Virus record (IMG/VR): IMGVR_UViG_2671180378_000024 | Reading direction: 5' to 3' (one strand) | DNA from: a virus | Lineage: Duplodnaviria > Heunggongvirae > Uroviricota > Caudoviricetes | DNA: 2,010 bases | Shown here: positions 137 to 2,010 of the stretch, one piece after another | Layout: each line of letters begins with the position of its first letter | How positions within the stretch are numbered: position 1 is the first letter of the stretch | Program-made: the position numbers and the translations under genes | The notes under the pieces: model-generated | Seen by the model: only the letters and a program-made list of their open reading frames with translations | Told to the model about the DNA's origin: nothing | Databases searched by the model: none

Positions 137-488
137 CGCCGCAGAACTGGCCTGTAAAAACCTGGGTGAAGTGGTGAGCTTTAAAGGCTATCTGGGCGAT
201 ATTGCCCTTGTCGTCTATTCCGGCAAATACACTGACAGCGACGGCACCGAAAAATATTTCCTTGAGCCTGATTTGCTGGTCCTGGGTAACACCAACAATA
301 AAGGGCTGGTGGCCTATGGTGCGATTATGGATCAGGAAGCGGTCAGAACGGGCGCAACGCAAAACATGTTTTACCCGAAAAACTGGATTGAGGACGGCGA
401 TCCGGCGATTGAGTACGTGCAGACGCACAGCGCACCGCAGCCGGTACCGGCAGATATTCGCAAATTTGTTATCGTCAAAATTGGTTAA
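111..488 (+). pseudogene. Major capsid protein, lambda gpE family, C-terminal remnant (about 115 of about 340 residues), 5' truncated, probably by the IS insertion
   Basis: The translation ..AELACKNLGEVVSFKGYLGDIALVVYSGKYTDSDGTEKYFLEPDLLVLGNTNNKGLVAYGAIMDQEAVRTGATQNMFYPKNWIEDGDPAIEYVQTHSAPQPV.. aligns by eye with the C-terminus of lambda gpE as recalled (..AVKDLGKAVSYKGMYGDVAIVVYSGQYVENGVKKNFLPDNTMVLGNTQARGLRTYGCIQDADAQREGINASARYPKNWVTTGDPAREFTMIQSAPLML..), with roughly half the residues identical, down to the stop. The frame is closed by a TAG at 45-47. The only in-frame start upstream of the homology is a TTG at 111, which lies inside the inferred IS terminus. Homology to gpE begins near base 137-141. 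Confidence 0.75.
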
Positions 489-500
489 CGGGGGGATTCT

Positions 501-836
501 ATGGACACTCCATACATTGAGTTATTTGCAGGTAGTCAGCAGGTATCCACGACGCTGGTACATTTTGCTGCTGATGCTGGCGTTATTCAGGAATTTACCC
601 CGCTGATGCTGGCGGAAAATGGCGAGTTTAAGCCGTGGGATGGTCAGGAATCTGGCAAGGCTGTTTATCTGACCTCGTACCCCGTGGACACGTCGACGCA
701 GAAATCAGCACAGTGCTACAAGACGGGGATATTCAATATTGCCGCCGTTAACTGGCCTGAGAGCGCCGACACCGACGCGAAAAAATGCGCCGCCTTTGCG
801 GGTTCTGGCGTATCCGTTCAGCCGCTGGCGCGATAA
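501..836 (+). CDS. Head decoration protein, lambda gpD family (complete, 111 aa)
   Basis: ATG at 501 preceded by a GGGGGGA Shine-Dalgarno (490-496) with a 4-nt spacer. The translation ..TPLMLAENGEFKPWDGQESGKAVYL..STQKSAQCYKTGIFNIAAVNWPESADTDAKKCAAFAGSGVSV.. aligns with lambda gpD as recalled (..[70 protein letters not shown]). Length matches lambda gpD (110 aa). It starts 12 nt after the capsid-fragment stop. Confidence 0.85.
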   Translation: MDTPYIELFAGSQQVSTTLVHFAADAGVIQEFTPLMLAENGEFKPWDGQESGKAVYLTSYPVDTSTQKSAQCYKTGIFNIAAVNWPESADTDAKKCAAFAGSGVSVQPLAR

Positions 837-848
837 GCAGGGGGAACG

Positions 849-1262
849 ATGGCAACGAATGAAAGTATCATGACGCTACCGCTGGCGAGTAAATTTAAAG
901 CCGAAGCGCGGGCAATGGCTGACAGAGGTTTATCAACCTACGAGGCCGTATATCAACTTAACAGCCTGGAAGAGAAGGACAAGCCGCGCGCTGATGCGAT
1001 TATGGCGCTTCATGAATCTGACGACTATCAGCCGCTGTTACGTGCAATGGCAAACGTGCCTTGTATTGATGTTGATACGGCTAAAAACATCCTGAACATG
1101 ACCATAGAGCAGGAACGCCCGAAGGTTGCACCAGAGCTTACCGCAGCCTTTGAAAACTTTATGGACATGCACAGCCCACAAGCCGTATCAGCTGGCATGG
1201 CATACGATGGCAGAAACCCGGGCGATGACGGCGACATCGATCGCATACTGAAAACCATCTGA
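849..1262 (+). CDS. Hypothetical acidic protein (137 aa), function unknown; co-oriented and translationally close-packed with the gpD-like gene
   Basis: ATG at 849 preceded by an AGGGGGA Shine-Dalgarno (839-845). It starts 12 nt after the gpD-like stop and ends at a TGA (1260-1262), immediately followed by a rho-independent terminator. No in-frame stops; E. coli-like codon usage. The protein has a marked excess of Asp/Glu over Lys/Arg. I do not recognise a family. It is not similar by eye to lambda gpFI, gpW or gpFII as I recall them. Confidence 0.75.
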   Translation: MATNESIMTLPLASKFKAEARAMADRGLSTYEAVYQLNSLEEKDKPRADAIMALHESDDYQPLLRAMANVPCIDVDTAKNILNMTIEQERPKVAPELTAAFENFMDMHSPQAVSAGMAYDGRNPGDDGDIDRILKTI

Positions 1263-1267
1263 GACAA

Positions 1268-1290
1268 GGCCGGAGAAATCCGGCTTTTTT
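1268..1290 (+). terminator. Rho-independent terminator downstream of the capsid-module genes
   Basis: GCCGGA (1269-1274), GAAA loop (1275-1278), TCCGGC (1279-1284), followed by TTTTTT (1285-1290). Begins 6 nt after the ORF3 stop. The T-run is on the + strand only, so it is unidirectional. Confidence 0.7.
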
Positions 1291-1291
1291 G

Positions 1292-1364
1292 CGGGTCCTT
1301 TCCGGCATATGGACCTGTTACGGGGCGGAGACCTCGCGGATTTTCGCTATTTATGAGCCTTTTC
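1292..1364. other. Lambda-type cohesive end site (cos): cosQ-like block, cosN, and the cosN-proximal (I2-like) part of cosB
   Basis: 1292-1305 CGGGTCCTTTCCGG is identical to the lambda cosQ-region motif as recalled, and lies the same 17 nt from the cohesive-end sequence as in lambda. 1335-1364 CGCGGATTTTCGCTATTTATGAGCCTTTTC matches lambda CGCGGGTTTTCGCTATTTATGAAAATTTTC at most positions. Downstream of about 1365 the sequence diverges from lambda cosB. Confidence 0.85.
1323..1334. other. cosN 12-nt cohesive-end sequence GGGCGGAGACCT (lambda: GGGCGGCGACCT); predicted terminase nick sites flank this segment
   Basis: Context TTACG|GGGCGGAGACCT|CGCGGA compared with lambda TTACG|GGGCGGCGACCT|CGCGGG as recalled. 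There is a single C-to-A difference at base 1329, position 7 of the overhang. Nick positions are inferred by analogy, not observed. Confidence 0.8.
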
Positions 1365-1428
1365 AGGGGGGTGGTGGTGGTTTTGTTGTTTGATCTATCT
1401 TTATGAATGAAAAGGGAAAGATGCAAGC

Positions 1429-1466
1429 AATACACCAACCTGAAGCAGTAATTAAGTTGGTGTATT
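1429..1466. repeat. Perfect 11-bp inverted repeat (AATACACCAAC ... GTTGGTGTATT) with 16-bp spacer, ending 1 nt before the terS ATG
   Basis: 1429-1439 AATACACCAAC is the exact reverse complement of 1456-1466 GTTGGTGTATT. It lies between cosB and the first ATG of the Nu1-like ORF. It could be a protein-binding palindrome or an RNA hairpin affecting translation initiation. Confidence 0.5.
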
Positions 1467-1467
1467 A

Positions 1468-2010
1468 ATGAAATCTCATCTGATGAACAAAAAAAACATG
1501 GCGAAAAGCTGCCGTGTAAGTGCGACAGCGTTCGACAAGTGGGGAGTAACTCCCGTTGAGCGTAAAGGCCGTGAGGCGTTTTATGATGTTGCCAGCGTGA
1601 TAGAAAATAGGGTTAACAATGCAATTAGCCAGCTTATAAACGACAAAGGCGAGATTGACGATGATGAACTTTTACGAGTCAGGATCAGATTACTGACAGC
1701 ACAGGCAGAGGCGCAGGAACTTAAAAACGATCGCGATCGCGGTGACGTGATTGATACTGAGTTTTGCCTGTACGCGCTTTCAAAGCTGGCGAGTCAGATT
1801 TCATCAATCATGGACATCCTCCCGCTTACTATGCAAAGGAGCTTCCCACAGATTACCCCCGCCATGCTGGACAGGCTTAAAAGGGAAGTGGTTAAAGCCT
1901 GTAATGCCAGTGCCAGAGTTGCCGACAACCTCCCACAGATACTGGCTGATTACTTGAAAGAAACAACCGGAAACGTACCGGAAAAGTTGCTACAGAAGAA
2001 AGGCGAGTAA
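1468..2010 (+). CDS. terS: Terminase small subunit, lambda Nu1 family (complete, 180 aa; alternative start at 1483)
   Basis: The translation ..NKKNMAKSCRVSATAFDKWGVTPV..LLTAQAEAQELKNDRDRGDVIDTEFCLYALSKLASQISSIMDILPLTMQRSFPQ.. aligns with lambda Nu1 as recalled (MEVNKKQLADIFGASIRTIQNWQEQGMPV..RLTRAQADAQELKNARDSAEVVETAFCTFVLSRIAGEIASILDGLPLSVQRRFPE..). Length matches lambda Nu1 (181 aa). It lies about 135-150 bp downstream of cosN, as Nu1 does in lambda (about 190 bp). Stop TAA at 2008-2010. No obvious Shine-Dalgarno upstream of either candidate ATG. Confidence 0.9.
   Translation: MKSHLMNKKNMAKSCRVSATAFDKWGVTPVERKGREAFYDVASVIENRVNNAISQLINDKGEIDDDELLRVRIRLLTAQAEAQELKNDRDRGDVIDTEFCLYALSKLASQISSIMDILPLTMQRSFPQITPAMLDRLKREVVKACNASARVADNLPQILADYLKETTGNVPEKLLQKKGE

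Follow-up and report, generated by a model that had tools for sequence, protein, structure and literature searches.

The 2,010-nt stretch of viral DNA analysed here (IMG/VR record IMGVR_UViG_2671180378_000024, Caudoviricetes; hereafter the window, with coordinates on the + strand unless stated) contains at 849-1262 an open reading frame (ORF) for a protein of 137 amino acids (aa) that is, as judged by sequence comparison, homologous to the scaffolding region at the C-terminal end of lambdoid gpC/Nu3, the S49 protease-scaffold; the relationship is remote but significant. The ORF protein corresponds to the last ~135 residues of lambdoid gpC, without the protease part, and can be placed by homology in the lambdoid Nu3/gpC scaffolding-domain family as a stand-alone, protease-less member. 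The window is the late end of a Gram-negative phage-inducible chromosomal island (PICI) of the EcCICFT073 type. The ORF belongs to a four-gene block that also includes capsid and decoration genes, and the stand-alone Nu3-type protein probably serves there as the cognate scaffold of the island's own capsid protein.

Residues 355-438 of lambda gpC/Nu3 match the PHROG family of the ORF, phrog_1999, with an expectation value (E) of 1.5e-25, and in phrog_53, the head-maturation-protease family, the C-terminus is matched by the ORF protein itself (E 7e-9). A phmmer search with the ORF protein against 1.8 billion representative proteins returned only eight matches, two of which were informative. One of these (P0040, 134 aa, 40% identity) is encoded in the same capsid-decoration-ORF order in a diverged island that uses Rpp, a terminase modulator. 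The other (P0041, 195 aa) is 33% identical to the ORF protein over 114 aa (E 3e-12; 2.7e-6 across the library of 1.8 billion), and its gene lies immediately upstream of D and E homologues in the lambda gene order, which is the site of the 3' end of gene C/Nu3; P0041 is also 47% identical to lambda gpC 353-414 (E 2e-15). The homologous gene in EcCICFT073, c1501, encodes a 137-aa protein in the same position with 94% identity to the ORF protein. By BLASTP, c1501 matches residues 416-493 of a 501-aa S49 peptidase of the native helper prophage in CFT073 (E 2e-10), the gene of which sits between the portal and D genes. A profile search with the ORF retrieved entries named 'S49 family peptidase', 'scaffolding protein' and 'phage capsid assembly protein', some of them carrying PF01343. 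Comparison by hhalign of a satellite-only profile with a phage-only gpC profile gave a probability of 95.9% (E 5.6e-9, 117 columns) and paired ORF residues 3-120 with helper gpC residues 367-486.

The ORF protein also resembles Nu3 in being small, acidic and mostly helical. It has 137 aa, 23 Asp and Glu against 14 Lys and Arg, a net charge of -9 and an isoelectric point (pI) of 4.60, in agreement with its earlier description as strongly acidic, compared with 131-201 aa, a net charge of -7 to -10 and a pI of 4.5 for Nu3, and its AlphaFold2 (AF2) model is all-helical. As with Nu3, its gene stands in a head-gene cluster beside decoration and capsid genes, the capsid-decoration-ORF arrangement being present in all islands examined. 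With lambda Nu3/gpC and the three-repeat gpC proteins of prophages (e.g., the 501-aa protein of CFT073 prophage 4) it shares a homologous repeat motif, the FExFMxxHSP tail and the general shape of the C-terminal end; with lambda Nu3/gpC it also shares the adjoining D and E homologues and an alignment that is colinear to the C-terminus. Unlike Nu3, which is nested in frame in protease gene C and read from an internal start, the ORF forms an independent gene preceded by a Shine-Dalgarno sequence of its own, has two repeats and lacks an S49 domain, and the 'GRE' signature of the phage gpC repeats is missing. It further differs from Nu3 in residing in a satellite without portal, protease and large terminase genes; a protease gene was found neither in the window nor in the intact islands.

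The protein contains two repeats of ~35 aa with the common pattern I-M-x-L ... A ... P ... A-K/R-x-x-L. Helical repeat 1 (aa 5-37, ESIMTLPLASKFKAEARAMADRGLSTYEAVYQL, 861-959) aligns with the second of the three prophage gpC repeats, and helical repeat 2 (aa 49-82, DAIMALHESDDYQPLLRAMANVPCIDVDTAKNIL, 993-1094) aligns with the last gpC/Nu3 repeat, residues 357-400 of lambda gpC; the number of repeats is thus two in the ORF protein, one in lambda and three in many prophage gpC proteins. The repeats are followed by the conserved tail motif FENFMDMHSPQAVSAG (aa 101-116, 1149-1196), which matches F(E/D)xFMxxHSPxxVxxG of prophage gpC and LDRLMQGAPAPLAAG of lambda, then by an acidic stretch, and finally by the terminal peptide DIDRILKTI (1233-1259), a predicted short helix and candidate capsid-binding end. 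The string IDRILKTI is identical between family members that are only 40% identical overall, and the C-terminus of lambda Nu3, ...VNDLLNTPV, resembles this end. Natural 93-aa variants in other E. coli genomes (P0028-P0030) lack exactly aa 25-68, which is one repeat unit, with the deletion junction between two RAMA strings. The loss of exactly one unit supports the two-repeat architecture and shows that recombination alters the copy number. With an alignment supplied, AF2 models aa 1-90 at a predicted local distance difference test score of ~90 (repeat 1 ~85-93) and the tail at low confidence, where two helices (95-107 and 128-136) flank a disordered stretch (109-126). The earlier note on this DNA had proposed structure prediction and a fold search as checks; the former yielded this helical domain, but the latter retrieved generic helical bundles only, and a sequence search of the PDB with the ORF profile found nothing at E ≤ 1.

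The ORF is considered a real gene and not a chance ORF because its protein matches phrog_1999 over the full length (E 4e-63), because 596 of 5,426 complete E. coli genomes carry it (~11%, at 90-100% DNA identity), and because its ratio of nonsynonymous to synonymous substitution rates (dN/dS) is 0.21-0.40. At least 80% of the ORF is kept in 591 of these carrier genomes, which include O157, O26, CFT073 and Nissle-type strains. The gene boundaries given previously were confirmed: between the preceding in-frame stop and the ATG at 849 there is no other start codon, and the close linkage to the preceding gpD-like gene is evident from the 12-nt gap (837-848) between the TAA of that gene and the ATG, which includes the Shine-Dalgarno sequence GGGGGA (840-845), read from the sequence, 3 nt before the ATG. 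The earlier statement that the protein could not be assigned to a family holds for Pfam and NCBIfam, neither of which gave a match even at E ≤ 1, but not for PHROG, where the match to phrog_1999 is full-length. A tblastn search of 50,697 phage records returned nothing at E ≤ 0.01. Most members of the ORF cluster (P0001, P0004-P0006 and others) bear the name 'phage head-tail connector protein' at NCBI.

The four-gene block, consisting of a gene for a 68-aa protein and the capsid, decoration and ORF genes, is contiguous in 598 genomes and does not change whether Rpp (CFT073, L006) or a full Nu1-type small terminase, TerS (window, O26, clone D i14), comes next. The converse is seen in a satellite that resides in a prophage capsid gene of E. 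coli GN06489 (L008). Its TerS is 79% identical, its capsid protein only 57% identical to the O26 capsid protein, and the slot between the decoration gene and cos/terS (L008:8416-8799) encodes a 127-aa AlpA-family helix-turn-helix protein (PF05930, E 1.4e-8). Because the block is constant across the Rpp and TerS types, and because of this converse case, the ORF is judged to accompany the capsid genes rather than those for terminase and cos. Absence of the ORF from relatives that keep the cos/terS arrangement had been named in the earlier note as a finding that would contradict its proposals. The GN06489 satellite is in part such a relative, and it counts against a role at cos or in the terminase; it does not weigh against a capsid role, since its capsid lineage differs as well. 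Identities to the native helper are of a similar order for the three proteins, at 45% for the capsid protein, 43-45% for the decoration protein and 37% for the aligned region of the scaffold. Among satellites the ORF diverges faster than its neighbours, with 40% identity compared with 83-85% (83% for the capsid protein), and the dN/dS values of the neighbours (0.06-0.18) are below that of the ORF. The 68-aa gene, a homologue of c1498, lies just upstream of the capsid gene and outside the window (L001:13091-13297). It belongs to phrog_3255, a family with no assigned function, its stop overlaps the capsid gene start, and it is invariably part of the block; relatives of its product among lambda head proteins were not detected.

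In E. coli O26:H11 11368 and many other strains, a ~10.5-kb island lies between roxA and phoQ; it shares 99.9% identity with window positions 137-2010. The O26 island is arranged in the order int, an alpA-type helix-turn-helix gene, an Icd-like gene, a RepA-type helicase gene, ssb and perC, followed by the late genes, which are the 68-aa gene, major capsid gene, head decoration gene, ORF, terS and a 93-aa gene. The model Gram-negative PICI EcCICFT073 (Fillol-Salom et al. 2018 and 2019) occupies the same roxA-phoQ site in CFT073 and has the same late genes. The hallmarks of EcCICFT073-type PICIs, namely a fixed chromosomal site, int, alpA, a pri/rep or RepA-type helicase gene, ssb, late genes, cos, and Rpp or TerS, are all found in the O26 layout. 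A capsid gene is carried by 21 of 29 reference Gram-negative PICIs (bioRxiv 10.1101/2022.07.18.500453).

Lambda Nu3 has a scaffold function, self-associates, and is connected with E, B and C on the published interaction map (PMC3224144). The literature on lambda Nu3 also describes binding to the capsid protein and the portal, a need for it in correct procapsid assembly, and its removal by the prohead protease (PMC3224144). Considering the homology to Nu3, the operon-like linkage to the capsid and decoration genes, the purifying selection and the invariant C-terminal peptide, the role of the ORF protein is most likely that of a cognate scaffold. Late in helper growth it would be translated alongside the capsid and decoration proteins of the island. 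Self-association would be mediated by the two-repeat helical domain (aa 1-90), and the flexible acidic tail with the invariant DRILKTI helix would bind the inner face of the island's capsid protein, so that this protein is chaperoned into procapsid shells. The shells presumably form on the helper's portal, and the helper's gpC protease would then remove the scaffold, since genes for a protease, a portal and a large terminase are lacking from the island. The block would be dispensable with a lambda or phi80 helper because the E, D and Nu3 of the helper suffice. With certain other natural helpers the block may constitute a working shell kit from which the satellite builds its own shell on the helper portal, a proposal that we regard as doubtful. 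Such a shell could differ from that of the helper in size, or in surface and interior, and it would be matured by the helper protease and filled by the helper's large terminase, TerL, under the direction of the satellite TerS or Rpp.

Several observations weigh against a cognate scaffold. The direct similarity of the ORF protein to lambda Nu3 is weak (BLASTP E 0.046), its identity amounting to only 22% with lambda, in an alignment colinear to the C-terminus, and up to 37% with the helper, and a hidden Markov model (HMM) built from the close family alone reaches a score of only 5.5 bits with lambda gpC. It is thus through the intermediates, P0041 and the helper gpC, and through the profile-profile comparison that the link is made. 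The gene order is E-D-scaffold, as opposed to C/Nu3-D-E in lambda, the natural 93-aa variants make do with one repeat, and the related satellite of GN06489 carries an AlpA-like gene in the slot of the ORF. Published experiments with EcCICFT073 point in the same direction. Transfer and interference were both unaffected when c1499 or c1500 was deleted, and lambda packaged EcCICFT073 DNA at phage size only (PMC6092414). Among the cloned genes downstream of ori, c1503 (rppA) alone blocked lambda when over-expressed, and deletion of rppA alone restored lambda growth almost fully (PMC6739421). Replacement of c1498-c1501 by cas9 did not prevent transfer of the island by phi80 (PMC10530653). The island can thus do without the block when lambda or phi80 is the helper, which lowers confidence in an essential role and keeps alive the readings of the ORF as a vestige or a decoy. 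In the literature searched, c1501, listed as a 137-aa gene of EcCICFT073 (PMC6092414 supplement), has no function assigned to it, nor is it described as a scaffold or as related to Nu3.

The widely used EcCICFT073 marker 'c1501::tetA' was considered as a possible c1501 knock-out that had hidden a phenotype. This was rejected, as the primers place the cassette directly after the stop codon (PMC6092414 supplement). The insertion site falls between the c1501 stop and a terminator-like hairpin (window equivalent 1260-1266); the gene is intact, but separated from the hairpin and cos.

The ORF protein might act on the helper instead, as a decoy or competing scaffold that replaces the helper Nu3/gpC on the helper's capsid protein or portal. 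The outcome would be disturbed helper head assembly, and hence interference, or an altered shell curvature and satellite-sized heads, as produced by SaPI1 CpmB with the 80alpha scaffold. Competition of satellite scaffolds with helper scaffolds is an established mechanism (reviewed in PMC6893505), and the homology to the helper's scaffolding region, which includes the tail motif, the likeness of the C-terminal IDRILKT to VNDLLNT of lambda Nu3, and the absence of the protease domain and the first repeat, by which the protein could act as a truncated competitor, are all compatible with it. So is the faster divergence of the ORF relative to its neighbours (40% compared with 83-85% identity), as an arms race might give. 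Nevertheless, this role seems rather unlikely: EcCICFT073 tetA has c1501 intact, yet the DNA packaged by lambda was all phage-sized (PMC6092414), the cloned late-region genes other than c1503 left lambda plaques unreduced when over-expressed, and lambda growth came back almost fully with the deletion of rppA alone (PMC6739421). The ORF could also be a vestige, a leftover piece of a late-gene cluster taken over from a lambdoid phage, which is transmitted along with the capsid and decoration genes but no longer does anything for the satellite. The capture of late genes from helpers by satellites is documented (bioRxiv 10.1101/2022.07.18.500453), and a remnant would agree with the dispensability of the whole block for transfer and interference in the laboratory, the elevated dN/dS of the ORF relative to its neighbours, the one-repeat deletion variants and many truncated copies, and the interruption of the window's own capsid gene by an insertion sequence. 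Such a remnant is improbable in view of the retention of at least 80% of the gene in 591 of 596 genomes, a dN/dS well below 1, and the strong purifying selection on the capsid and decoration neighbours (dN/dS 0.06-0.18). Furthermore, lineages that are only 40% identical have retained the start codon, the Shine-Dalgarno sequence, the tight spacing and the C-terminal peptide.

The earlier note had guessed at a packaging or head-assembly accessory protein. The link to head assembly is borne out by the homology, but the specific analogies offered with it fail. Its preferred analogy was lambda gpFI, which is located after E and works with terminase and proheads. A packaging chaperone of this kind, or a modulator of terminase specificity, would fit the position near cos and terS, the size and the acidity of the ORF protein (gpFI has 132 aa and a pI of 4.55), and the likeness goes no further. 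The best BLASTP alignment to gpFI covers 8 residues (E 0.85), phrog_92 is matched by gpFI itself (3e-51) but not by the ORF, and no alignment to RppA was obtained at E ≤ 100; nor does the ORF protein give a helix-turn-helix, MerR or Nu1 signal, while RppA does match phrog_57. Rpp and Nu1-type TerS proteins are marked at the N-terminus by a winged helix-turn-helix akin to the DNA-binding domain of Nu1. A connection with terminase hijacking is contradicted by the occurrence of the ORF with either Rpp or a full TerS downstream. With its homology to the scaffold region and its gene tied to the capsid lineage and not to the Rpp, TerS or cosB type, a function of the gpFI or terminase-modulator kind is very improbable. 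An unrelated moron, also raised in the earlier note, is at variance with the homology to the Nu3/gpC scaffolding region, and PADLOC gave no defence match for the ORF. The remaining candidate, a head-tail connector or adaptor, derives from the source name at NCBI only and can be all but dismissed. No connector family of Pfam, NCBIfam or PHROG was matched even at E ≤ 1, lambda W and FII belong to other PHROG families, and the significant relatives are all C-termini of gpC/Nu3; the name looks like a propagated mis-annotation.

Comparison with known satellite systems places the cognate-scaffold proposal in context. The ORF and c1501 of EcCICFT073 are the same gene at the same roxA-phoQ site; in EcCICFT073 the gene after cos is rppA (144 aa), whereas the window has a full Nu1-type terS and a different cosB. 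SaPI1 CpmB is likewise a small helical satellite protein related to a helper scaffold, and the ORF protein would, like it, act inside the procapsid. To our knowledge, there is no sequence relationship between the two. CpmB acts on the helper capsid protein and makes small heads, while islands of the window type supply a capsid protein themselves, and with lambda no small heads were observed (PMC6092414). The capsid-forming PICIs (e.g., EcCIEDL933) have the same int/alpA/rep backbone and their own head genes, and they are reported to encode a full set of major capsid protein, protease, portal, connectors, HNH, TerS and TerL. In contrast, the island studied here has only shell, cement and scaffold genes together with TerS or Rpp, all of lambda type. 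Lambda gpFI is similar in its ~130 aa, its acidity and its location in the head-gene region, but differs in having no detectable homology to the ORF protein.

The remainder of the window comprises the genes flanking the ORF and the cos region. Bases 1-136 are the end of an IS3-family (IS600-like) insertion sequence (IS) on the - strand. Matches to these bases are confined to IS copies in Shiga toxin phages and to thousands of E. coli IS3-like IS600/ISEc52 transposase loci, and the transposase orfA starts at about position 72, reading leftwards. Similarity to the intact island begins at 137. In the window's strain the IS interrupts the island's major capsid gene at about codon 235. The IS/capsid junction is absent from all 5,426 complete E. 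coli genomes searched, which indicates a strain-specific insertion, and the capsid module of this strain is probably broken by the IS and not working. The 3' part of the lambda-gpE-like major capsid gene, a homologue of c1499, follows at 137-488 (~last 117 codons) and matches positions 228-328 of the 329 in the Pfam Phage_cap_E profile (E 1.7e-16). The intact gene in O26 (product WP_000907455) and CFT073 encodes 351 aa with 44% identity to lambda E. The gpD-like head decoration gene, a homologue of c1500, extends from 501 to 836 with its TAA stop at 834-836; it matches Pfam HDPD (E 1e-17) and phrog_49 (E 6e-27), and its product is 38% identical to lambda D.

Downstream of the ORF, positions 1263-1467 are non-coding. 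A hairpin with a G+C-rich 9-bp stem, AAGGCCGGA-GAAA-TCCGGCTTT at 1266-1287, stands directly after the stop codon and is followed by a T-run, the whole spanning 1266-1293. It corresponds to inverted repeat I3, folds with -18.9 kcal/mol (z -2.6 relative to shuffled sequences), and is conserved in CFT073, clone D i14 and L006. The terminator that had been placed after the ORF is supported by this stable hairpin and U-run, but a simple pattern scanner made no call; a terminator-like function is plausible. A cosQ-cosN-like region (1288-1367), recognised by alignment to the lambda right-end/left-end junction, includes the 12-nt cohesive-end sequence GGGCGGAGACCT at 1323-1334 and is conserved among the islands. 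In the L006 island, the cosN core is also different. The cosB side (window 1335-1467; segments compared L002:17489-17670, L007:8787-9012, L008:8792-9012 and L006:2270-2450) falls into two unrelated sequence types: TerS accompanies the first (window, clone D i14 and the helper-embedded satellite), Rpp the second (CFT073, L006). The cosB type follows the downstream gene and not the ORF. A perfect 11-nt inverted repeat, AATACACCAAC / GTTGGTGTATT, is located at 1429-1439 and 1456-1466 with 16 nt between the arms and ends 2 nt before the start of terS. Possible functions are binding of TerS or, at the RNA level, formation of a hairpin that masks the ribosome-binding site of terS. The gene after cos (1468-2010) matches Pfam Phage_Nu1 (E 8e-23) and phrog_57 (E 2e-51). 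Its product is 36% identical to lambda Nu1, with a full-length relationship over 180 aa that includes the C-terminal part. In lambda, the C-terminal part of Nu1 binds TerL. No similarity to RppA was found in the window TerS, and the gene is accordingly assigned as a full-length Nu1-type terS and not an Rpp gene as in EcCICFT073.

The assignment gives a name and a testable role to c1501, a gene of a model satellite that had never been characterised, and corrects the misleading 'head-tail connector' name on a gene present in ~11% of complete E. coli genomes. It would also supply a function for PHROG family 1999, and it delimits the Nu3 scaffolding domain, which has no Pfam model, as repeat units, a tail motif and a terminal helix. 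If the ORF protein is a scaffold homologue, the island encodes the coat, cement and scaffold of a lambda-type shell, and not a stray capsid gene; this set makes the hypothesis of self-assembly concrete and cheaply testable. Should the block indeed work as a shell kit, islands of this type would form an intermediate class between the classical PICIs, which use helper-made heads only, and the capsid-forming PICIs. Such a kit could rescue transfer from helpers with defective head genes, and could evade defences or interference that target the helper capsid protein.

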